19,979 nt of DNA, from the UHGV virus genome UHGV-0128318; one strand, 5' to 3'. Source of the DNA: a virus. Positions 1,768 through 18,398 of this stretch are shown in pieces. Numbering within the stretch: position 1 is the stretch's first letter; each line of letters starts with the position of its first letter. The notes under the pieces are model-generated. The model ran no database searches. It was not told where the DNA came from and saw nothing but the letters and a program-made list of their open reading frames with translations. The position numbers and the translations under genes are program-made.

Positions 1768-1903
1768 GTTGTGTGACCTACCTCGCCTGCCCCCTGCAAA
1801 GGGCAGAAGTAACGGAGGAAACGCGGCTGCAACCACAGACATCACCGCCCCGACTGCGAGGCTTCCCTTCTCTAAGAAGGGCATAAATTCGGGCTGGTCA
1901 ACC

Positions 1904-2677
1904 CTATTTATTGGTGATTTCTGCTGGCTTTAGCTGCGCGGATAACTGCTCAAGTTTTTGAACTGCCAGTTCAAAATGCGCGGGTAACGCCTTTTCCAGA
2001 TCAGAGTTAATATCGGTGATGGGTAAATCACCACACGACATACTCCGCCTACCCCCACGAACAACATCACGCAACAACTCTCGTTCATACGTGCGCATGT
2101 TCCCCAATGCCGACTCAGCAGCCGTCAAAATCCGGCGCAGTTCTGCCGTAATTGCTGGCAAATCATCAACCGTTATGGGGTTCGGGGATGGATTACGACA
2201 CGCCCGACGCAAAGCTAACCATACACCGCTAATCCAGGCATTTCGGTACTGAAAACTTTGTGCTATATCGTTAATCAGCCCTCGCAGATACTCTTTCTGC
2301 CTCCAGTTCAACGGCTCCGCTGCTCGCATTGGCTCAGGCTCGATGTAAACGTACTCTCCATTTTTACGAATAGAGGGCAAGACTTCGTTCGTTACCCATT
2401 TGCGAAACCGCCAAGCTGTTGTGCCTTGCTTCACCGCGTCACGGCAGCGGAGAATGAGCGTGTAAAGACCTGATTCACTGATGATATTGGCTTGACCTTG
2501 ACGGCCTATGTTAAACATAGATCGCTCATCTTCATCTAATCGAGCGATAGCTTGTGTGACATTCTGGATGCTTAAAGCATTGCAAATATCATTCGCCACA
2601 AACCACGGATCGCCGTTAATCATCACTACACGTACCTGATGCTCTTCCTGAAAGGAAAAGACTGCTAACGCGCTCAT
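1904..2677 (-). CDS. Bro-N domain antirepressor (AntB-like), 257 aa
   Basis: N-terminus FSFQEEHQVRVVMINGDPWFVANDICNALSIQN...ISESGLYTLILRCRD...WVTNEVLPSIRKNGEYV is a typical Bro-N signature. Its ATG overlaps the stop of the upstream ORF (ATGA coupling). Confidence 0.75.
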   Translation of the reverse strand: MSALAVFSFQEEHQVRVVMINGDPWFVANDICNALSIQNVTQAIARLDEDERSMFNIGRQGQANIISESGLYTLILRCRDAVKQGTTAWRFRKWVTNEVLPSIRKNGEYVYIEPEPMRAAEPLNWRQKEYLRGLINDIAQSFQYRNAWISGVWLALRRACRNPSPNPITVDDLPAITAELRRILTAAESALGNMRTYERELLRDVVRGGRRSMSCGDLPITDINSDLEKALPAHFELAVQKLEQLSAQLKPAEITNK

Positions 2678-2907
2678 TCAGCCTCCTTACCGTGCAGCAA
2701 TTGCGACGAGAGCGATGCTGAATATCCCTGTGCTTCGTGTGTTAACTCACACGCAATTTGAAGGAGTTTCCCTGCTTCTGAGAGATAAATCGACGCCTCA
2801 CAGCTGGAGACTGTCCGATGGGCTGATGATACGAGCGCATAGACCTGAGCCAGACGTTCATCCAACGATTCCAGCAGGCCAACAGTGTTCATTTTTACCT
2901 GATTCAT
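2674..2907 (-). CDS. Small protein (77 aa) in the antA position of a P1/N15-type icd-ant operon
   Basis: ORF translationally coupled on both sides (ATGA overlaps with icd-like stop and with the Bro-N gene start); no recognisable domain. Confidence 0.45.
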   Translation of the reverse strand: MNQVKMNTVGLLESLDERLAQVYALVSSAHRTVSSCEASIYLSEAGKLLQIACELTHEAQGYSASLSSQLLHGKEAE

Positions 2908-3068
2908 GCAGCCACCTCGCGCACCGGAATACGGGCAGACAATACCAGGACAAACCGGCTGGCGAACTGGCGACGAGCTTCCCGTTCAGATGACGCGATG
3001 GTGGAAAGATGATGGATGTGTGACTTTTTGTCTGTGCGAACGACTGCCGCAAATTTGAATTTGAACAT
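2904..3068 (-). CDS. icd: Icd/Ash-like small protein (54 aa: MFKFKFAAVVRTDKKSHIHHLSTIASSEREARRQFASRFVLVLSARIPVREVAA). It is absent from the ORF track (shorter than the track's apparent cutoff) and conflicts with the spurious track ORF 2858..3052.
   Basis: ATG at 3068-3066 preceded by GGAG at about 8 nt; stop overlaps the next gene's ATG. The FKFAA...RRTD...EARRQ...ARIPV pattern resembles Icd/Ash-family proteins of P1/P4-type immunity operons (from memory, unverified). Confidence 0.5.
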   Translation of the reverse strand: MFKFKFAAVVRTDKKSHIHHLSTIASSEREARRQFASRFVLVLSARIPVREVAA

Positions 3069-3106
3069 GGTATGCACTCCGTTTAATTGGTCGTGCTACC
3101 ACCAGA

Positions 3107-3151
3107 GTTCTCACGCTCTTGAATGGTGGTAGCCCAAGCGGGGGTGAGAAT
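3107..3151 (-). promoter_or_regulatory. Leader target elements upstream of the icd-like RBS: a second copy of the 10-mer gttctcacgc (3107-3116, identical to the RNA loop at 3277-3286) and its partial complement gtgagaa (3144-3150)
   Basis: Exact 10-nt direct repeat 170 bp apart plus a 7-nt inverted copy. This allows either an intramolecular hairpin in the mRNA leader or pairing of the upstream small-RNA loop with the leader. Confidence 0.45.
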
Positions 3152-3234
3152 ACCGGCAAACGAAGAAACCGGCCTGACCGAAGTCAGCCCCGCCTGAGCC
3201 ACCATAAATCGGATATGCGCAGGTATATACACAC

Positions 3235-3256
3235 AAAAAAACACGCTGGCGCGTGT
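3235..3256 (-). terminator. Intrinsic terminator on the minus strand (acacgc-gcca-gcgtgt followed by T7), inside the leader of the antirepressor operon
   Basis: 6-bp GC-rich stem, 4-nt loop, immediate run of 7 T on the minus strand. Confidence 0.6.
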
Positions 3257-3309
3257 TGTGCGCTTCGTTTATCCGGGTTCTCACGCCCGGCTGCGGAATT
3301 TGCCGCAGC
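3235..3309 (-). ncRNA. Candidate c4/CA-type small regulatory RNA of about 75 nt: two stem-loops (3291-3308 ctgcgg/ccgcag; 3273-3290 ccggg/cccgg with loop cgugagaa) followed by the terminator
   Basis: Promoter-like TTGACG-18-TAAAGT on the minus strand (3345-3316) placed about 7 nt before the first stem-loop; loop sequence repeated and complemented in the downstream leader. Matches the known architecture of P1 c4 / P4 CI / N15 CA immunity RNAs. Confidence 0.45.
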
Positions 3310-3315
3310 GGAGTA

Positions 3316-3345
3316 ACTTTACCGTTAAAACGACGCACACGTCAA
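3316..3345 (-). promoter_or_regulatory. Putative sigma70 promoter of the anti-immunity operon (TTGACG-18-TAAAGT)
   Basis: Hexamer match and spacing read from the sequence; no other support. Confidence 0.3.
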
Positions 3346-3365
3346 TAATTTGCAAAGACATTTTA

Positions 3366-3385
3366 CCCCGTGACCAGTCACGGGG
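3366..3385. repeat. 20-bp palindrome ccccgtgaccagtcacgggg (family 2: CGTGAC-YR-GTCACG), about 20 bp upstream of the putative operon promoter
   Basis: Inverted repeat with 9-bp arms; near-identical core at 8049-8062 and 14369-14382. Confidence 0.6.
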
Positions 3386-3446
3386 ACAGGTGTTTTTATA
3401 GTTTGCTTGAACGAGTGATCAGAAGTTGATCGTTAATCAAAGGCCA

Positions 3447-3734
3447 TTACGGATTAAGAGAGTGGAAATACCTAACTAACTTACCGGCATCATCACATTT
3501 TTCTTTATCTTCTTCCTTAACATAGCCGCGACAGAAGGCTGAATAAAATTTCGCATTTTCAGAAGCAAAAGCAGCCGTCGAAAGGAGCAGTTCTTTGCAT
3601 GATTCTTTTGATGCAGCATCGGGATTATTTTTACATGCAAGCTCCGCTGATGAGTTAATAACAGAAATGCTATCTTCCTGGGCATAAACCGCAGCAGAAA
3701 AGGCAAAACATAAAACCAAAATAAAACTCTTCAC
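3447..3734 (-). CDS. Small secreted protein, about 95 aa, with a signal peptide (KSFILVLCFAFSAAVYA|QE) and four Cys in the mature part; function unknown
   Basis: GTG start at 3734-3732 with AGGAG at 5-nt spacing (the track's longer start at 3758 lacks an RBS); classic n-h-c signal peptide with AxA site; locally AT-rich. Confidence 0.5.
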   Translation of the reverse strand: MKSFILVLCFAFSAAVYAQEDSISVINSSAELACKNNPDAASKESCKELLLSTAAFASENAKFYSAFCRGYVKEEDKEKCDDAGKLVRYFHSLNP

Positions 3735-3761
3735 TTTATCTCCTGTAACAGTTATCACAAC

Positions 3762-4157
3762 TCAATCAACTTTTTTAGCATCAGCCATACGCTTCAACCA
3801 GTAATCAACAATCGGCTGCTCATCCACAGAATGTTTACCAGGTATAACTCGCCAGCTATCTTGCGAAAATCTGCCGTACTTACGCGGGAATAGGCCTTTC
3901 TTTATCTCCCGCCATGTACTAGGAAAACCATCCACAAAAGTACCAATTAACAGGAGAGGGACAAAAATCAGAGCTACAAACCATCGTGCAAGAAAGTGTT
4001 CAACAACAACATTTTCACCGTTGTAGTAATACGCATACGCATCCAATATGCGAATTTTCCTTACCTTAAAAATAGCCTTATGCTGAGAACGACTTAACTT
4101 GATACGAATGTATCCCTTATCCAAAGGGGATTCGTATTTGTATGATTGAACAGCCAT
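3762..4157 (-). CDS. Single-pass membrane protein, about 131 aa (TM segment FVALIFVPLLLIGTFV); function unknown
   Basis: ATG at 4157-4155 with GGGG at 6-nt spacing; hydrophobic helix in the middle; AT-rich like its downstream neighbour. Confidence 0.5.
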   Translation of the reverse strand: MAVQSYKYESPLDKGYIRIKLSRSQHKAIFKVRKIRILDAYAYYYNGENVVVEHFLARWFVALIFVPLLLIGTFVDGFPSTWREIKKGLFPRKYGRFSQDSWRVIPGKHSVDEQPIVDYWLKRMADAKKVD

Positions 4158-4159
4158 TT

Positions 4160-4486
4160 TTAACCCCACTCACCATCAGCAAACAAAGCGTTATACTCTG
4201 ACAATGGTAGATGGTTGCCCTCGATGTAGAGATTCAGTTCATACTTCGTCTCCGGGTTTTCCTTGTCGGCTCGTTCCCAACGCTCAGCAGCCTCACGCGC
4301 CAATAACTCCACTGCTTTCAGATAATCCTCCGTACGGAACCAGCCAAAGATAAGGCCACGATCTGTTACAGCCCAGGCAACCTTTTTTTCTTCCTCCTGG
4401 ATAGCCTTAATGCGTCGATCGCATTCATCCCGGCAAAACTGCAGCTGACGGTAATCAAGTTTGTCCAAAAATGCAGTAGTAGACAT
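4160..4486 (-). CDS. Hypothetical cytoplasmic protein, 108 aa (MSTTAFLDKLDYRQLQFCRDECDRR...)
   Basis: ATG at 4486 preceded by GGGGAG; the track start at 4564 is an upstream extension without an RBS. Confidence 0.5.
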   Translation of the reverse strand: MSTTAFLDKLDYRQLQFCRDECDRRIKAIQEEEKKVAWAVTDRGLIFGWFRTEDYLKAVELLAREAAERWERADKENPETKYELNLYIEGNHLPLSEYNALFADGEWG

Positions 4487-4490
4487 ATTT

Positions 4491-4589
4491 TTACTCCCCG
4501 TTAACCGAAAAATCACGATAGAAACGTTTCCACATACGATAAGTCTGCGCGAGTTGTTCACCACGAAACATCGCCTTCCTGGCCTTCAT
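4491..4589 (-). CDS. Possible 32-aa micro-ORF (MKARKAMFRGEQLAQTYRMWKRFYRDFSVNGE) between repA and the next gene
   Basis: AAGGAAAA then ATG; its stop overlaps the RBS of the downstream gene. Too short to judge further. Confidence 0.25.
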   Translation of the reverse strand: MKARKAMFRGEQLAQTYRMWKRFYRDFSVNGE

Positions 4590-4674
4590 GTTTTCCTTGT
4601 GAGACTTTCGATCTATGAACCAAAACCATTGCTGGAACACACAAAGCAAGAGACACAAAGATAATATCCACTGA

Positions 4675-7600
4675 TTACCCATAGAAAGCGCCCTGCTCTT
4701 CGTAGCTGCATGGGCTATTCCCGGTAATGTATTCACGTAACCGCCGCAGTTCATTGCTGGATAAGTGATCCATGAACTCTGTGAGGTACAGAGAGGCAAA
4801 CGTCATAGCTATGCTGGCTGATGACCATGATGACATAGTGGCCAGCTCCTCACCGGAAAGCGCACTCATCGCCCAGGACTCAGGTACAACCACTGGCAAC
4901 ACAGCCAAAGCCTCAGAAATTACTGAATGAGGGGCGTTTTGAACCTGCTCGTTTGTGGATCGCGTTTTATCATCCATATATATATTGAGATCCAAATCGC
5001 GATCCATTTCGATGGCGGTCTTCTCGGCTTTACGCGTTTTCAGGGTTAGGCCATCTTTCTGACGCTGAGCAAGAATATCCAGCATAAATGCCGCTGATTC
5101 AGGCTCAACAAAACGCAAGGTTGGACGCTTATCGCCGTCTCTGCCGCGACGTTTACCTGTTTTAAGGCCAAGAGAGTCGCAAATGTTTTTAAACAACGCT
5201 TCCGGCACTTTAGGCTTCCCTTTTGGCGTCATAAAACCACCAATGTGCAGAACGTTATTCAACAGGTCACGGCGTTCGGCTGTCATGAGGTTATCTCGAG
5301 CGAATTTGAGACGCTCCTGAGTCGCCTCGCCGGTCATAGTCTCAGGGTTGATACCGCAGTCGATAAAGTACTGCCGGAGAGTTGCTGATTTAAGCGCATA
5401 GAAACCGCGCGCCCCGACTTCAACAGTAGGAGTAGCTTTTACCTTGTGATCGATTATTCCAGGGAATTTAGTTTTAAAGACATCATCAGCCTGCTCGCGA
5501 GTCATCGCGGTCACTACAAAATATTGCCACTGTCCCGCCTGACGGTATGCGTAGGTAAAATTGATGGCTGCTTCTTCCCGGTCGTAACGACGAGCTGTTA
5601 CCTCATCTAAAAGCATTGTTTCATAGCGGCGAACTTTGTCTCGAGCACCATCGAAATAGAATTTCAGCGTGCCTTCTTCAACCGGTAGTTTCAGTTCGTT
5701 TTCAATATCCCAGCGGACAAGTTTTGCCTGTTCTTCAAGCGTCAGCGCGCGTTTTTTTAGCAGTTCTTCACGCTCTGATTCTTGTGGAGTTTCTGTATTG
5801 AGGTGCAGATCCAGTGTCTGTTCCCACACAATATCCCGCGCTTCTTTACGCAGATCTTTACCGATATCATTCGCAGCATAATCGGTGGCCAGCGGTGATA
5901 CCTTATAACCGTCGCTGTGCATGATGCAGATCATGTTGCTGGCGTAGTCGTTACGCGCAGTCGCTTCAATTGCGGCTGCTTTAATTTTCATCCTGGTAAA
6001 GTCGGTATTGGCCACCCCCATTGATATACGGTCGCCATCGAAAACGACATCCGTAAGTTCACCGTTCATACCTGCGGTAGCAAGCAATGCCTGGGCGAAT
6101 GCTCGTTCTATTTTTTGCGGGTCAGTTTCACGTTTTGCACGAGCTTTATCAAAGCCGATAATAAATTCTTTTGCTGTACGGTCGCGGCGTAGCATTTGCA
6201 CTGCGTCGCTGGGTACAACTTCACCACAGAACATGCCGAAATGACGGTCAAAATGTTTTTGCTCAATCGACACGCCGGATGAAATAGACGGGCTATAAAT
6301 CAGGCCGTCGTATTTTTTGACCATCTTTTTCGGTTGATTGGTAAATGCTTCAACTTCTGGCTCTGGTTTGTTTTTCTGGTTTACACACAGAAATTTCTTA
6401 CCAGGAAAATGCATTCTCAGGGTGGCTGTCACATCTTCTGCAAAGGTGGAGCTGTCGGTGGCCAACATGATTTTTTCGCCATCCGATACAGCTTTCACCA
6501 CCTCGGTCATGATGCGATCTTTTTCTGTATAAAAAACCCGGATTGGCTCACCTGTTTCGCGGTTGCGAACATCAACAGGTAATTCAATTACGTGGATCTG
6601 CAGCCATGCCGGTAAACCTAGTTCTTCACGGCGTTTCATAGCCAGTTCAGCCAGGTCAACCAGTAGATCGTTCGCATCAGCATCCACCATGATTGGGTGT
6701 TGTTCCGTTCTGGCCAGCGCGTCAATTAGCGTATTGAATACAGCAACCGGGTTTTCCATAGCCCGACCGGAAAGAACGGCACGTAGCCCTTGCGTGGCCT
6801 CGTCAAAGCCAAAATAGTCGTGCTGGCGCATCAACGGTTGCCAGCAGTTTTTAACAATCGAGTTTATGCAGATGGTCAGTTTACTGGCGTATGGAGCCAT
6901 TTCCTGATAGCCAGGGTCCTGATAGTGCAGGATATCGGCTTTTACACCTTTTCCTTCTGTCATCATTTCCCACAGGCCACCAATAAGGGAGACACGGTGA
7001 GCAACAGAGATACCACGTTCTGAGCTATGCATTAACGGTCGTAACAATCCAGTAGATTTGCCGGAACCCATACCAGCACGGACGATGACTATCCCCTGTA
7101 GTGATTGCACGTACTTCAGGACATCATCGGTCATTACCGAAGTTTCAAAACGCTTATAGGTGATATGTTGAGGGCGTTTATTGGGATCAGTTATGCGTTC
7201 GCTGAAAGAGCGCGGAGCCTGGGCAATACGGCACTTTTTATTCAGGCGACGGGCAATGTGGTCTTTTACCGTAGCGCGATAGATATTTTCCAGTCCCATT
7301 TCACGCAGAACGATGCAGAACATGTTAAATAAATCTGACGGACTGTTAGGAACCGGGCAGGTTAGCATGCCAATATCCACCGCTCTCAGCAGCTCTTTGG
7401 CAAAAGTACGACGGTTATCCCGCTTAATTGTCTTCAGGCGGTTGAGCGTCAGAGATAGCAAATCAGTGCCAGTTTTCAGGCGGTTTGCAGTTGCAAACAG
7501 TTGACGTGCTGTTTCACGAAGTCCACGTAGTTTGTGCAGGTCGTTGAAGTCACTGCACTCCATTTGCGGATCGTCTTCAAAAGTTGGATAGACGCAGCGG

Positions 7601-8664
7601 ACATCGTTGAATTTCGATAAGATTTCATAGCCAGTCCGCAGGCCGGTATTCCCTTTTCCTTCTGTAGCTGATTTCCGGTCATTATCCAGTGCGCAGGTGA
7701 TTTTTGCCGCCGGGTACATGTTTACCAGTTGTTCCACAACATGAACCATGTTGTTAGCGGATACAGCGACAACCACAGCGTCAAAGCGTTTATCTTTTTT
7801 CGTGGCAAGCCAGATGGATGCACCAGTAGCAAAACCTTCTGTAACAGCGATGTTTTGCGCCCCTTTCAGCTCACCGATAACAAAGCAGGCACCGACGAAA
7901 TCGCCGCTGGTTACGGCGCTGGTCTGGTATTTTCCACCTTGTTTGTCGATTCGCTGCCAACCAACAATACGACCATCGTAACGACCGTCCAGGTGAGCCA
8001 GAGGGATAGCCATATACGTGGTTGGCCCCCTGCTCCATTTTGCGCTGTCGTGACTGGTCACGCGACGCACATCACACGAATTAAAAACGTCACGAATACC
8101 TTTTTTAATCGCATATGGCCATGAGCCGTCTTCTGCAGGAGCATGTTCCCAAGCACTGTGGAATGCCAGCCATCCCAGCAAACGTTCATGGTCCATTTGG
8201 TTGTTTTTCAGGTCATTAATTCGTTTTTGTTCTTCACGGCGACGACGTGCTTCACGTTCTATTCTTGCCCGTTCTTCTTCCGGTTGTGCGACCACGGTCG
8301 CATTATTCCGTTGTTGCTCACGGCGATATTCAGAAAACAGGAAGGAGAAACCGCTCCATGAGCCAGCATCGCTGCCTTTATGGACGAAGTTAATGAACGG
8401 GTAATCAATCCCTTTGCTGTGTTCCAGTCGGGAGTAAATTTCTACGCGTCCTTTGAGGCTCTTCTCGAGAGCTTCTGGAGATGTTTTATTGTATGAAGAG
8501 TAACGCTCAACACCCCCGCGAGGGTTGAGTTGGATGTTGTCGGAACAGGCAGACCAGTTGATACCAGCCATCTGTGCCAGCTCGGTTAGTTCATCCCGTG
8601 CTGCTTCAATTAGCGAGAACGGATCGCTGCCAAAGCGATCCGCATAGAAATCGTTTAATGTCAT
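4675..8664 (-). CDS. repA: RepA-type multidomain replication protein (primase-helicase), 1329 aa, with a Walker A motif (GMGSGKST)
   Basis: Size and position (next to cB, transcribed away from cro) match N15 repA, which is about 1.3 kaa; NTP-binding motif seen. All + strand track ORFs between 5616 and 8404 are antisense artefacts of this gene. Confidence 0.9.
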   Translation of the reverse strand: MTLNDFYADRFGSDPFSLIEAARDELTELAQMAGINWSACSDNIQLNPRGGVERYSSYNKTSPEALEKSLKGRVEIYSRLEHSKGIDYPFINFVHKGSDAGSWSGFSFLFSEYRREQQRNNATVVAQPEEERARIEREARRRREEQKRINDLKNNQMDHERLLGWLAFHSAWEHAPAEDGSWPYAIKKGIRDVFNSCDVRRVTSHDSAKWSRGPTTYMAIPLAHLDGRYDGRIVGWQRIDKQGGKYQTSAVTSGDFVGACFVIGELKGAQNIAVTEGFATGASIWLATKKDKRFDAVVVAVSANNMVHVVEQLVNMYPAAKITCALDNDRKSATEGKGNTGLRTGYEILSKFNDVRCVYPTFEDDPQMECSDFNDLHKLRGLRETARQLFATANRLKTGTDLLSLTLNRLKTIKRDNRRTFAKELLRAVDIGMLTCPVPNSPSDLFNMFCIVLREMGLENIYRATVKDHIARRLNKKCRIAQAPRSFSERITDPNKRPQHITYKRFETSVMTDDVLKYVQSLQGIVIVRAGMGSGKSTGLLRPLMHSSERGISVAHRVSLIGGLWEMMTEGKGVKADILHYQDPGYQEMAPYASKLTICINSIVKNCWQPLMRQHDYFGFDEATQGLRAVLSGRAMENPVAVFNTLIDALARTEQHPIMVDADANDLLVDLAELAMKRREELGLPAWLQIHVIELPVDVRNRETGEPIRVFYTEKDRIMTEVVKAVSDGEKIMLATDSSTFAEDVTATLRMHFPGKKFLCVNQKNKPEPEVEAFTNQPKKMVKKYDGLIYSPSISSGVSIEQKHFDRHFGMFCGEVVPSDAVQMLRRDRTAKEFIIGFDKARAKRETDPQKIERAFAQALLATAGMNGELTDVVFDGDRISMGVANTDFTRMKIKAAAIEATARNDYASNMICIMHSDGYKVSPLATDYAANDIGKDLRKEARDIVWEQTLDLHLNTETPQESEREELLKKRALTLEEQAKLVRWDIENELKLPVEEGTLKFYFDGARDKVRRYETMLLDEVTARRYDREEAAINFTYAYRQAGQWQYFVVTAMTREQADDVFKTKFPGIIDHKVKATPTVEVGARGFYALKSATLRQYFIDCGINPETMTGEATQERLKFARDNLMTAERRDLLNNVLHIGGFMTPKGKPKVPEALFKNICDSLGLKTGKRRGRDGDKRPTLRFVEPESAAFMLDILAQRQKDGLTLKTRKAEKTAIEMDRDLDLNIYMDDKTRSTNEQVQNAPHSVISEALAVLPVVVPESWAMSALSGEELATMSSWSSASIAMTFASLYLTEFMDHLSSNELRRLREYITGNSPCSYEEQGAFYG
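4950..5010. other. Candidate internal replication origin element: AT-rich stretch (catatatatatt) with three GATC sites within about 50 bp, inside the 3' end of repA
   Basis: Seen in sequence; N15 ori is known to lie within the 3' part of repA. Confidence 0.3.
8049..8062. repeat. Family-2 palindrome cgtgactggtcacg inside the repA 5' coding region
   Basis: Perfect 6-bp arms around a 2-bp centre; same core as 3366-3385 and 14369-14382. Confidence 0.6.
8287..8302. repeat. SopB-type centromere-like palindrome tgcgacc-ac-ggtcgca (family 1), inside repA coding sequence
   Basis: 7-bp perfect arms; core GACCACGGTC resembles the F sopC binding site TGGGACCACGGTCCCA; four more copies in the window. 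Confidence 0.5.
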
Positions 8665-9819: not shown

Positions 9820-10519
9820 GTATATACGCAGCTGCGTCTCTACGGCATTGGCTGATGTTCATTATCTCCAGCGTGGCATTCTGGAGGTCCAGCTTGAGCA
9901 GATGCGTCTCGGTAGATCAGGACGGTTTAACAATAAACCAGTCCGGTCAATCAGTGTGGGGGATGATAACTCATACGAAGTGTCCGTTTCTGCTGAGCCG
10001 GTTAGATTCCATCAGGGGAAAACATTTAAACAATCATCAATGTTGCTCACTGATATTGATTTTCAGAGCGCCAGCTGGCGCAGGGCTATTGGTCAGTTGA
10101 ATAACGAGGAATCAGCCTGGCTTTATTATTGCTACGGATGCAAGCCTGATTACAACAATGATGTGATTGTTTGTCAGTGGTTATGGCTTGATTTTCTGGT
10201 TGCTCATTCGGGGGGCGGCTTTAAAAAAATGAAGGCCTCCACGAAAAAAGCTATGCGAAAATTGATTTATTACGCGGCACAACAGGTTAAATCAGAACTT
10301 ACGTGTGCTGAGGCAGTTGATGAGAGAGAACAGGACAGGCATCTGAGTTTTCTACTGAATATATCTATTGATAGCTGGAGACAAGATTATAAAGAACGCT
10401 GGCTTTTAATTAAGTCGCGATGTCTGAGCTTAAATCGAACTGCATTATTAAATGCGGCGGAGAAGCGCAGTGAAATCATCAAACGCCATCGGGCAGGAAG
10501 TGCCATTCTGCCTTTGTAA
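9809..10519 (+). CDS. Putative late-gene antiterminator (Q-like by position), 236 aa with CxxC (CYGC)
   Basis: Immediately downstream of and overlapping cro, as Q is in N15/lambdoid phages; the family assignment is positional only. Confidence 0.45.
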   Translation: MELEYIRSCVSTALADVHYLQRGILEVQLEQMRLGRSGRFNNKPVRSISVGDDNSYEVSVSAEPVRFHQGKTFKQSSMLLTDIDFQSASWRRAIGQLNNEESAWLYYCYGCKPDYNNDVIVCQWLWLDFLVAHSGGGFKKMKASTKKAMRKLIYYAAQQVKSELTCAEAVDEREQDRHLSFLLNISIDSWRQDYKERWLLIKSRCLSLNRTALLNAAEKRSEIIKRHRAGSAILPL

Positions 10520-10772
10520 ACAAGTTATGTTCAGGAAACCGTCGAAGCCAGAATTAAGGTATTCGGGGGTAAGAAATGAATATGTTATCTGGTGTCCAAC
10601 TTGTGGTTATAGGACACGACCAGATAGTAATAAGCAGTCTGTAATTGCCGATTGGTATTTATCAAATCAGCCAGGTAATAAGCATATAGAAAATCTTTGG
10701 ATTAAGCGTTACTTGGAAATCAGAGAGGGTGCGACCGTGGTCGCACAAGAAAATGAAAATAACGCCATTTAA
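10470..10772 (+). CDS. Zinc-ribbon small protein, possibly Lar-family (restriction alleviation-like): PFCLC ... WCPTCGY ... SVIADWY
   Basis: GTG at 10470 with GGAG at 7-nt spacing, overlapping the Q-like 3' end by 50 nt; an alternative ATG at 10527 loses the first Cys pair. Confidence 0.35.
   Translation: MKSSNAIGQEVPFCLCKQVMFRKPSKPELRYSGVRNEYVIWCPTCGYRTRPDSNKQSVIADWYLSNQPGNKHIENLWIKRYLEIREGATVVAQENENNAI
10729..10746. repeat. SopB-type centromere-like palindrome gtgcgacc-gt-ggtcgcac (family 1), within coding sequence
   Basis: 8-bp perfect arms. Confidence 0.5.
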
Positions 10773-10782
10773 GCAGGGGCCG

Positions 10783-10956
10783 ATGACGCATGATGAAGCA
10801 GAGCGTCTTTCAGATACTTATCGGCGGCGTGGTAAGAAAGTTCTGGTTGTTCGTTCTGATTTTTTAGGTGATGGATATTGTGTTTATGTTCATTTACCTG
10901 AATCAGAAAGAACGCCAAAACCATCCAGAACATATCAACAGAAAATTTGGGTATAG
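10783..10956 (+). CDS. Hypothetical small protein, about 57 aa (MTHDEAERLSDTYRRRGKKVLVVRSDFLGDGYCVYVHLPE...)
   Basis: ATG preceded by AGGGG; the track ORF 10729..10956 extends upstream across the palindrome and the preceding gene. Confidence 0.3.
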   Translation: MTHDEAERLSDTYRRRGKKVLVVRSDFLGDGYCVYVHLPESERTPKPSRTYQQKIWV

Positions 10957-10979
10957 ATAAACGTTGAGGAGAATTATTC

Positions 10980-11579
10980 GTGACTAATCAGATTATTTAC
11001 GACAGGAAACGGTCTGATGTAATGATTGACCTTGAAACAATGGGTACTAACACATGTGCTCCAATTGTTTCTATCGGGGCAGTGTTTTTTTCTCCAGAAA
11101 GTGAGGAATTAGGTCCTACTTTTTATGTGCCAGTGAATCTCAGAAGCTCGATGTTGAATGGTGGTATCGCCGATGGTGATACCATTTTATGGTGGTTGAA
11201 ACAGAGCAAGGAAGCCAGAGCCGCTATTTGTACTAATGATGCCCTTGATATTAATGATGCACTTTTTGAATTATCACACTTTATTACTTGCCATGCATGT
11301 AATTTAAAAAAGTTGAAAGTATGGGGAAATGGAGCAACGTTCGATAATGTAATTTTACGCGGTGCTTATGAGCGCGTTGGCTTAGCCTGTCCGTGGGAAT
11401 ATTTTAATGATCAGGATGTTCGAACAATCGTTAATCTTGGTCAGTTTATTGGTTTTAATCCTAAAAAAGATATGCCATTTGATGGCGAACGACACAATGC
11501 CTTGGCTGATGCTATTCATCAGGCTAAATATGTATCCGCAATTTTCTCCCGTCTTGTAAAAGGGCAAGGAGAATCGTAA
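10980..11579 (+). CDS. DEDDh-type 3'-5' exonuclease (DnaQ/RNase T-like fold), 199 aa
   Basis: Motifs MIDLETMG (Exo I, D-x-E) and HNALADA (Exo III, H-x4-D); GTG start with GAGGAG at 8 nt. Confidence 0.7.
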   Translation: MTNQIIYDRKRSDVMIDLETMGTNTCAPIVSIGAVFFSPESEELGPTFYVPVNLRSSMLNGGIADGDTILWWLKQSKEARAAICTNDALDINDALFELSHFITCHACNLKKLKVWGNGATFDNVILRGAYERVGLACPWEYFNDQDVRTIVNLGQFIGFNPKKDMPFDGERHNALADAIHQAKYVSAIFSRLVKGQGES

Positions 11580-11998
11580 TGGCAAAGGCTTTTACACCAG
11601 AACAGAGGGAAGAACTGAATAAACAAATTGTGGAACTCGTGCGCCTGAATGGACGAGGAACGGTTAGGCAACTTGCGGATGAAACTGGTATTAGCCGGTG
11701 TGCTGTTAGTCGTTTATCAAGAGAGCTTGCTGCCAGTGGTGATTTGTATATCTCTGGCTCCGGGATATTTCTGTCTGCACAAGCACGCAAGGACTGGCAA
11801 AACGCCCGTAAAAAACTATCAAGAGTAAAGCCGAAGAAATCGGTAGTGGTTGATCCAGACCTTATCTGGTCATTACCTGACGGAGAAATACGTCGTTACG
11901 ACAGGCGCTTGAACATGATTTGTCACGATTGCCGGAAAAGTGAAGTTATGCAGCGTGTGCTGGCTTTTTATCAGGGAAATTTACAGGAGGTGGCGTAG
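11579..11998 (+). CDS. Putative HTH DNA-binding protein, 139 aa
   Basis: Helix-turn-helix-like segment TVRQLADETGISRCAVSRLSREL; start overlaps the upstream stop. Confidence 0.5.
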   Translation: MAKAFTPEQREELNKQIVELVRLNGRGTVRQLADETGISRCAVSRLSRELAASGDLYISGSGIFLSAQARKDWQNARKKLSRVKPKKSVVVDPDLIWSLPDGEIRRYDRRLNMICHDCRKSEVMQRVLAFYQGNLQEVA

Positions 11999-17628: not shown

Positions 17629-17901
17629 ATGAAGATGGATGAACGATACAGCAGTGCATCTTATGGTAGCGCCGGTCTTGCTGCGTTCTTTGCCAGCCTG
17701 TCATTGCAGGATTGGGGCTTCATTATCGGTGTCGCGTTCAGCATTATCCTCGGTGTGCTTACATACCGGCTCAATAAACGCGAGCAGATGAAGCGCACGA
17801 AGATATTGCAGGAGATATTGGATAAAACTAATACCAATAATCTTTCTGCTACAGCGATGGTTATTGGAGAGCTGGGGAAGAGAGCACCGAAGGAAATATG
17901 A
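17629..17901 (+). CDS. Class II holin (pinholin-like, two TM segments), 90 aa
   Basis: Two hydrophobic helices followed by a charged C-terminus; immediately upstream of and overlapping the endolysin start. Confidence 0.7.
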
Positions 17902-18398
17902 TGCAGTCATCATTACGCAAAGCTGTTACAGCTGCTATTGGTGGCGGGGCTATTGCCATAGCGTCTATGCTCATCACTGGCCCAAGTGGTAACGATGGTC
18001 TGGAAGGTGTCAGTTACATACCATACAAAGATATTGTTGGCGTATGGACTGTATGTTACGGACACACTGGAAAAGACATCATGCTAGGTAAAACGTATAC
18101 CGAAGCAGAATGCAAAGCTCTCCTGAATAAAGACCTTGCCACTGTCGCCAGACAAATTAACCCGTACATCAAAGTCGATATACCGGAAACAACGCGCGGC
18201 GCTCTTTACTCGTTCGTTTACAACGTGGGCGCTGGTAATTTCAGAACATCGACGCTTCTTCGCAAAATAAACCAGGGCGATATCAAAGGCGCATGTGATC
18301 AGCTACGTCGCTGGATATCTGCTGGCGGTAAGCAATGGAAAGGCCTGATGACTCGTCGTGAGATTGAGCGTGAAGTCTGTTTGTGGGGTCAACAATGA
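17898..18398 (+). CDS. SAR endolysin (phage lysozyme, T4-lysozyme/GH24-like, with N-terminal signal-anchor-release domain)
   Basis: Gly/Ala-rich N-terminal TM ([20 protein letters not shown]) and catalytic region [14 protein letters not shown]; ATGA overlap with the holin. Confidence 0.85.

Follow-up and report, generated by a model that had tools for sequence, protein, structure and literature searches.

The closest described counterparts of the locus reported here come from the telomere phages of Klebsiella and from the phages T4 and HK97. The telocin:immunity locus of the Klebsiella telomere phages is a described cargo hotspot (PMC12042878), and in the lysogen of one of them, NAR688, only nine phage proteins could be detected, three of which are ImmA, TelA and a product listed as gp35 (Dunstan et al. 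2025, PMC12042878). Spackle of T4 has a single disulfide (C29-C81) and forms a flat helical bundle of several short helices, of which alpha1, alpha4 and alpha5 make up the interface with gp5 (PMC7677548). The gp15 protein of HK97 is a superinfection-exclusion moron (Cumby et al. 2012, reviewed in PMC3594210). The DNA analysed here, UHGV virus genome UHGV-0128318, is a stretch of 19,979 nucleotides that is called the window below. It belongs to a linear plasmid-prophage of E. coli that is N15-like (Ravinvirus-type). Between the replication gene repA and a P1-type anti-immunity locus (C4-RNA/icd/ant) it carries a block of two genes on the minus strand, p131 (3762-4157; 131 residues) and p95 (3447-3734; a 95-residue precursor). 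The block is cargo of uncharacterised protein families in an already known hotspot, and p95 and p131 are two independent, horizontally acquired genes that do not form a two-gene defence module.

In N15 the genes for gp36, gp35, gp34 and gp33 lie downstream of repA; in the window the positions of gp34 and gp33 are taken by p131 and p95. No match to p95 is present in N15. Like p131, gp33 has a hydrophobic segment, located near its C-terminus; p131 as a diverged gp33 was rejected (BLASTP E = 9.9, hhalign probability 0.2%). In Klebsiella phage NAR688 the interval from the gp35 homologue to the a1b1/isrK/C4 elements holds ImmA (Colicin_im) and TelA (colicin pore domain), and these proteins match PF01024 and PF03857 of Pfam. 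The telocin locus of NAR688 and the block in the window occupy the same slot, which follows repA and the gp35 homologue and precedes a1b1/isrK/C4; this trio of elements was also located in NAR688 (locus L018, 8397-8595). Low G+C content is common to both cargoes, with 0.30 for ImmA and 0.43 for TelA versus 0.56 for repA of NAR688. In contrast to the telocin cassette, the window block encodes no colicin-type toxin and no Colicin_im protein according to Pfam; a secreted protein with four cysteines and a protein with one hydrophobic segment are found instead. In the terms of PMC12042878, the window element would be a 'Tel0' phage. Further occupants of the interval are a p131 homologue only, in Ravinvirus MStein-2023a, one gene for a 74-residue protein between repA and the anti-immunity locus in pEC12401-3, and two small genes there in pS142-3. 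The telocin locus of the Klebsiella telomere phages is thereby shown to be a general cargo slot of N15-like phage-plasmids, with an E. coli version that carries envelope proteins rather than bacteriocins. This finding aids the reading of the accessory content of N15-like elements, which are clinically common.

Region 3300-4800 of the window shows 100% identity to plasmid CP088379.1 of E. coli and 98.5% identity to phage PhiR46_1 (PV340565.1) and several 46-kb plasmids. Both open reading frames (ORFs) of the block are annotated as coding sequences in near-identical records (PhiR46_1 and RefSeq plasmids). The G+C content is 0.389 for p95 and 0.407 for p131, versus 0.483 for the gp35-like gene, 0.486 for repA, 0.486 for ant and 0.529 for the icd-like gene. 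At third codon positions the values are 0.30 (p95) and 0.37 (p131), versus about 0.48-0.50 in the flanking genes. The 711-bp block falls at the 5th percentile of same-size windows across the 20-kb window, and equally low G+C content is found in the window only in the 5' half of the protelomerase gene telN and at 10568-11654. Downstream, the cargo slot is bounded by a complete P1/P7-type anti-immunity leader at 3122-3322 on the minus strand, composed of the a1/b1 targets (3270-3322; Rfam RF03163, 48.8 bits), an isrK-like element (3236-3309; RF01394, 68.1 bits) and a C4 antisense RNA (3122-3209; RF01695, 82.2 bits), all above the gathering score. On the other side lies repA (4675-8664, minus strand). 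A preliminary description of this DNA, made from the sequence alone, had reported two co-directional genes, AT-richer than their surroundings and situated between repA and the anti-immunity operon, one of them encoding a signal peptide and four cysteines and the other a membrane segment, with neither product assignable to a family. These points are all borne out, and so is the variability for which that description had proposed a comparison: the occupants differ among N15, NAR688, MStein-2023a, pEA8_3, YDC107_1 and pEC12401-3.

The block ends a row of genes in the order repA-p63-gp35-p131-p95, in which the successive junctions are an overlap and gaps of 4, 2 and 27 nucleotides. The p95 gene starts with GTG at 3734 and is preceded, at a distance of 5 bases, by an AGGAG Shine-Dalgarno sequence at 3744-3740. 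No promoter-like site was found on the minus strand at 3447-4700, hence none upstream of p95 or p131 in the window; the only match at 3000-4900 is the promoter of the anti-immunity locus, a sigma-70-like TTGACG-18-TAAAGT (3316-3345, minus strand) just upstream of the a1/b1 targets. A GC-rich hairpin with an 8-bp stem and a 4-nucleotide loop (3366-3385, minus strand; -15.5 kcal/mol, z = -2.8) is located 62 nucleotides past the stop codon of p95. It belongs to conserved backbone, as 3292-3431 is kept in N15, YDC107_1 and MStein-2023a, and its U-tract is weak. It is the probable end of the repA operon and a putative terminator. Because the gaps do not exceed 27 nucleotides and a single hairpin stands at the end, the layout indicates that repA, p63, gp35, p131 and p95 are probably transcribed together in the lysogen, where a plasmid-prophage has to express repA. 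Of the features by which morons in the Juhala/Hendrix sense are recognised, a base composition unlike that of the flanks is found in both p95 and p131, and presence or absence among close relatives with gene-sized boundaries is found in p95. As to a promoter and terminator of their own, the window shows no minus-strand promoter-like site upstream of either gene and one hairpin with a weak U-tract; transcription of both genes together with repA is the likelier arrangement.

The independence of the two genes is seen in sister plasmids. Homology by blastn to pEA8_3 and p2011C-4180-1, two plasmids of E. albertii, is lost at window position 3424 and regained at 3747; the breakpoints enclose a single-gene cassette (3425-3746, minus strand) that consists of the p95 ORF with its Shine-Dalgarno sequence and is swapped among sister plasmids. 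The homology to N15 ends at 3435. In pEA8_3, p95 is replaced by a 270-residue lipoprotein starting MRNKKTTALLLSILLLSGC, beside which p131 is kept, and in YDC107_1 by a 74-residue protein. Of 5426 complete E. coli genomes, 17 have the repA lineage, in every case on a plasmid; p131 accompanies it in 17/17 and p95 in 14/17, and at least two of the three genomes without p95 carry a lipoprotein-type replacement. In one plasmid a p95 gene of 100% identity stands beside a p131 gene of 89% identity, from which it follows that p131 alleles recombine independently. Farther away, no p131 homologue was detected within 5-6 kb of the diverged p95 homologues of loci L007-L012 or in the ORF listings of L020-L037, and no p95 homologue was detected near the p131 homologues of loci L002, L004, L006, L013, L014 and L015; the tblastn cross-check behind these results covered 15 loci. 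The earlier proposal of a membrane/periplasmic pair acting as a module is not supported, since the swap isolates p95 alone and each family occurs without the other. The block had also been offered as a candidate undescribed module; both protein families are indeed uncharacterised, while the interval had already been described as the telocin:immunity hotspot (PMC12042878) and contains no module. That p95 and p131 are real genes and separately mobile cargo of the moron type can be stated with high confidence.

The replacement lipoproteins of the E. albertii plasmids were also inspected. They measure 270 residues (locus L002, 2648-3460) and 257 residues (locus L004, 778-1551), with a G+C content of 0.353, and neither gave a Pfam family or a PADLOC match. 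In p2011C-4180-1 an IS2 element is inserted beside the replacement gene.

The p95 precursor begins with a signal peptide (residues 1-18, encoded at 3681-3734 on the minus strand). According to a rule-based reading, these residues (MKSFILVLCFAFSAAVYA, followed by QE) comprise an n-region MK, a hydrophobic core of 14 residues, and V at position -3 and A at position -1, with cleavage after V-Y-A and before Q. Sequence rules identify no lipobox; the site is of the AxA type and would be cut by signal peptidase I. The A at -1 is retained in at least 90% of the homologues. Mature p95 has 77 residues and is acidic (pI 5.05), as is most of its family, and contains four cysteines, C34, C46, C68 and C80 in precursor numbering. 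A single-sequence AlphaFold model was too poor (predicted local distance difference test, pLDDT, of 55), and an AlphaFold2 run with an alignment of 23 sequences was used instead. It gave helices at 22-34, 40-71 and 74-93, with pLDDT of 76-87 across the mature part. The pairs C34/C46 and C68/C80 flank the two turns between the helices in this model.

Neither p95 nor p131 gave a significant match in Pfam, NCBIfam, PADLOC-DB v2 or the PDB by sequence or profile searches. In PADLOC-DB v2 no family was found at E <= 1 for p95, p131 or the 108-residue gp35-like protein. The PHROGs families matched by p95 (phrog_26765) and p131 (phrog_15458) are of unknown function. Three weak leads were set aside. 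The plant invertase/pectin-methylesterase inhibitor fold (2cj4, 1rj1) appeared below threshold among dozens of generic helical matches and is a resemblance only. DUF2385/TIGR02301 was a generic helical match below significance and below the curated cut-offs. DUF1311, likewise generic and sub-threshold, is not used as evidence.

An exhaustive HMMER search among 1.84 billion representative sequences yielded 12 relatives of p95 at E <= 0.001, and a profile search brought the family to about 20 full-length sequences, which measure 91-109 residues and mostly 91-102. The hosts are Citrobacter, Klebsiella, Salmonella and related genera. At 30-47% identity, all of the approximately 20 members keep the signal peptide and the cysteines at 34, 46, 68 and 80; the last cysteine is absent only in P0002, which bears a deletion. 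The first homologue search had returned chiefly frameshifted copies of p95 that resemble divergent homologues, and the true relatives were obtained with HMMER and the profile search. Among the sequences recovered, P0003, P0004, P0006, P0008 and P0010 are chimeric, with the p95 frame joined to an overlapping frame of 76 residues (3476-3706, minus strand). Because repA is also split in most of these records (e.g., the CP088xxx series), the frameshifts are probably due to sequencing or assembly error rather than to pseudogenisation.

In Citrobacter and Klebsiella siphovirus prophages the p95 homologue is found in the interval that separates the tail-tube/YdaY genes from the tape-measure gene. Among the other cargo nearby are an FtsK-gamma protein, a HipA_2 pair and, once, a TIR gene. 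The G+C content of homologues is 0.357-0.411 versus about 0.49-0.54 nearby; one homologue in Klebsiella (0.357 versus about 0.50) has a terminator-like hairpin on either side. In lambda-like prophages the homologue is found between the tail genes I and J and is followed by a gene for a 137-residue lipoprotein.

Several observations were made on these neighbours. The 137-residue lipoprotein (VKKILGLLAGSILLSGC...) is always encoded 3' of the p95 homologue in the I-J context (L021, 5317-5730; L033, 5373-5786; L020, 5317-5730; L022, 513-926), and a Pfam search assigned it to no family; together the two may form a two-gene envelope moron in this context. In the Klebsiella tail operons with a p95 homologue (L010, 4112-5624; L012, 10797-11675), a HipA_2 protein with a weak match to PDC-M66A of PADLOC is accompanied by a 293-residue partner. 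The TIR-domain gene is situated among the distal tail genes of one Klebsiella prophage that carries a p95 homologue. In Citrobacter prophages the gene for a 98-residue FtsK-gamma protein, a winged-helix domain binding FtsK orienting polar sequences (KOPS), shares 4 nucleotides with the start of the p95 homologue (L007, 5708-6004), which suggests translational coupling. A lone FtsK-gamma domain within a tail operon is odd.

The p131 protein consists of a basic N-terminal domain, a hydrophobic segment at residues 60-78, a G-F-P-x-T motif and a basic tail. The hydrophobic stretch is single, has a Kyte-Doolittle mean of 2.27 over 19 residues and is conserved in the homologues. The domains on either side are both basic (pI 9.8 and 9.9), and positive charge is higher in the 15 residues that follow the segment, so that the orientation in the membrane is ambiguous. 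Invariant positions of the family are R23, H26, R33, Y43, W59 and L63, together with the G-F-P-x-T motif just past the hydrophobic segment. Searches of the PDB by sequence and profile gave only noise for p131, such as PsaE and polyhedrin, at E > 0.1. Relatives are encoded by the Yersinia telomere phage P840 (44% identity), by MStein-2023a, directly after the gp35 homologue (32% identity), by Proteus Gorganvirus phages, after the DNA polymerase gene, and by Salmonella phage CF-SP1, between the terminase and portal genes. The position in CF-SP1 rules out that p131 is confined to replication modules.

The best overall explanation of the locus, to which a probability of about 0.4 is assigned, combines independent cargo in the slot with a periplasmic exclusion protein, p95. 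In the proposed mechanism p95 would be exported by Sec, its 18-residue signal peptide would be removed and DsbA would oxidise the protein, leaving a soluble, acidic, 77-residue three-helix protein in the periplasm. There it could act as a stoichiometric binder or inhibitor of an incoming protein that attacks the envelope, the likeliest target being a tail-tip or cell-wall-penetration component of a superinfecting phage. Its relation to T4 Spackle would then be one of functional analogy and not of homology. p131 would be a separate mobile, membrane-anchored protein that possibly acts at the inner membrane during DNA entry and does not require p95. The exclusion function of p95 is a reasonable but tentative proposal, and superinfection exclusion is a weaker guess for p131 than for p95. 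It is doubtful whether the claim can be extended to a family, founded by p95, of disulfide-stapled three-helix periplasmic exclusion proteins of temperate enterobacterial phages that would bind and neutralise a tail-tip, lysin or tape-measure component of incoming phages, is independent of Spackle and distributed as single-gene morons in at least four prophage slots. If p95 does block entry from the periplasm, it would join T4 Spackle as only the second known case of exclusion by a soluble periplasmic protein, with no earlier one carried by temperate phages, and it would offer a compact scaffold of 77 residues for inhibitor studies.

Several points weigh against the exclusion function. No homology in PADLOC, Pfam or NCBIfam links p95 or p131 to phage exclusion. 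Any function in lysogenic conversion would be consistent with residence in a moron slot. Expression of p95 in the lysogen is predicted from the layout of the operon and by analogy with another phage, NAR688. The disulfides C34-C46 and C68-C80, which probably staple both turns, are read from a model of medium confidence. The family is small (12 among 1.84 billion), which gives no sign of selection for a defence of broad use. The literature on PhiR46_1, on ECOR13 prophages and on superinfection exclusion in connection with N15-like phages provided no functional data on p95 or p131.

Among the other explanations, one holds that p95 is a different kind of envelope conversion or lifecycle factor, one that confers stress or serum resistance, modulates a periplasmic enzyme of the host or regulates the element's own GH24 endolysin. 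The window does encode a Phage_lysozyme endolysin of this family (17898-18398), moron slots also hold lom and bor, which have non-defence roles (PMC3594210), and positive evidence for a phage target of p95 is lacking. Such a role is nevertheless unlikely, since the position in tail operons, the lipoprotein neighbours and the swap with a lipoprotein gene are more typical of entry-blocking morons, and profile and fold comparisons found no likeness of p95 to known stress chaperones or lysozyme inhibitors.

The main rival is orphan immunity. Immunity proteins of the periplasm are typically small, secreted and disulfide-bonded, and p95 might be an orphan of this kind, directed against a periplasm-acting bacteriocin or against a peptidoglycan-targeting effector of type VI or contact-dependent inhibition (CDI) systems of competitors, with p131 possibly a second, membrane-level immunity factor; the cargo would then serve defence against other bacteria and not against phages. 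Telocins and their immunity genes fill this very slot in the telomere phages of Klebsiella and are expressed in the lysogen, and the exclusion protein Cor protects against colicin M as well (PMC3594210). No toxin gene, however, adjoins p95 or its homologues in the four contexts examined, searches of Pfam and NCBIfam gave no match to Colicin_im or any other immunity family, and p131 has one hydrophobic segment, unlike immunity proteins to pore formers with their several helices, such as ImmA with four predicted hydrophobic helices, all of which makes orphan immunity improbable.

A single two-component exclusion module, analogous to Imm plus Sp of T4, would suit two adjacent, co-directional genes of low G+C content whose products are both predicted to be targeted to the envelope and which occur together in 14/17 E. 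coli plasmids of the lineage. It is very unlikely, given that a recombination breakpoint falls between p131 and p95, that p131 is paired with a lipoprotein in pEA8_3 and that the examined homologue loci of each gene are devoid of the other.

The record of PhiR46_1 (PV340565.1) labels its p95 gene, 98.9% identical to that of the window, 'Spackle exclusion protein'. A true homologue of T4 Spackle that inhibits a gp5-type tail lysozyme would agree with this label and with the size, predicted Sec export, acidity, helicity and disulfides that the two proteins have in common. The sequence of Spackle (gp61.3) was confirmed against 6x6o before the comparison. BLASTP of p95 against it gave nothing meaningful (E = 31), and hhalign of the p95 family profile aligned the signal peptide alone, with 16% probability. 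Searches of the PDB with phmmer and profiles, 6x6o and 7cn6 included, returned no Spackle at E <= 10 for p95. Foldseek with the p95 model likewise returned none from the PDB at E <= 10, and from BFVD it gave no significant match and no named Spackle among the best 50 matches listed. Homology to Spackle is rejected by sequence, by profile and by three fold libraries; the cysteines number four versus two, the PHROG matches are families of unknown function, and the idea has next to no probability left. The label of p95 is at best a functional analogy and not a family assignment. As it stands in GenBank it is unsupported and could spread via annotation pipelines.

Equally hard to maintain is that the block is an AT-rich spacer whose ORFs are annotation noise or remnants without function, as the rarity of the p95 family and the many frameshifted copies in databases might suggest, in view of frameshifts that mostly occur in records with other split genes, 14 RefSeq copies of p95 that all match over at least 98% of the gene length (a match of length, not of frame), a signal peptide and cysteines kept at 30% identity, a well-spaced Shine-Dalgarno sequence, and ratios of nonsynonymous to synonymous substitution (dN/dS) below 1 between the window and pCAVP367-48 (p95 0.21, with only 9 differences; p131 0.41; repA 0.08; all from small counts).

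The surroundings of the block are those of an N15-like element. telN runs off the 5' edge of the window and ends at 1732. It is followed on the minus strand by the Bro-N antirepressor gene ant (1904-2677), a gp31-like gene (2674-2907) and an icd-like gene (2904-3077), identified by PHROG and Pfam matches; RefSeq names in sister plasmids are 'Bro-N domain-containing' for the first and 'host cell division inhibitor Icd-like' for the last. The antirepressor is full length in the window (257 residues). PhiR46_1 and pCAVP367-48 lack about 800 bp (window 1794-2594), which leaves a remnant of 54 residues; the anti-immunity effector is therefore polymorphic within the lineage.

On the other side of the block, a backbone gene at 4160-4486 (minus strand) encodes a 108-residue homologue of gp35, with 62.6% identity to N15 gene 35 and 60-72% identity to Klebsiella and Enterobacter telomere phages (tblastn). 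The next gene, p63 (4491-4682, minus strand), encodes 63 residues with a hydrophobic N-terminus (WILSLCLLLCVFQQWFWFI), and its ATG overlaps the stop codon of repA. It is an annotated coding sequence in PhiR46_1 and is left unannotated by RefSeq in many plasmids. p63 is 100% conserved in sister plasmids and has homologues of 37-47% identity in about 54 Klebsiella and Citrobacter N15-like plasmids; a Pfam search assigned it to no family. In N15 the equivalent position is held by gp36, from which p63 differs. The preliminary description had taken the two upstream ORFs for possible backbone, which is correct for the gp35 homologue; its '32-aa micro-ORF' at 4491-4589 is the 3' half of p63. repA encodes a CyRepA1-type primase/replication protein of 1329 residues, and the records that match it are named plasmid replication protein or primase. 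Beyond repA the window contains the CB repressor, the Q antiterminator, a DNA methylase and the GH24 endolysin.

The second low-G+C stretch, 10568-11654, involves a Lar-like restriction-alleviation ORF (10452-10772) and an Rv2179c-like 3'-5' exoribonuclease (10980-11579) and may be another cargo region downstream of Q. Many deposits (CP088379.1, NZ_CP019258.1, CP025712.1 and others) hold the region twice in opposite orientations or measure 60-90 kb. In linear plasmids with hairpin ends, such doubled or long records look like telomere read-through during assembly and not like true dimers.

The proposed exclusion protein p95 can finally be compared with known systems of envelope-based exclusion. 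HK97 gp15 is encoded in the same slot as the Citrobacter and Klebsiella homologues of p95, between the tail-tube/chaperone genes and the tape measure, and both are small envelope proteins of prophages; gp15 is a YebO-like protein of the inner membrane, whereas p95 is predicted to be soluble in the periplasm and has no sequence relation to it. Lipoproteins of the Cor/Llp type, such as Cor of phi80 and N15 and Llp of T5, block receptors. Like the p95 family they are envelope proteins encoded near tail genes, and the p95 slot alternatively holds a lipoprotein, whereas p95 is devoid of a lipobox and is predicted to be cleaved by signal peptidase I. Spackle and p95 have 75 and 77 mature residues, respectively, and both are acidic (pI 4.63 and 5.05), all-helical, disulfide-bonded and exported by Sec with a cleavable signal peptide, the properties of p95 being predicted. 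They differ in the number and pattern of cysteines (two in Spackle, four in p95) and are dissimilar in sequence, profile and fold. Spackle is the product of an early gene of a virulent phage, whereas p95 belongs to a temperate phage-plasmid and to an operon predicted to be expressed in the lysogen.

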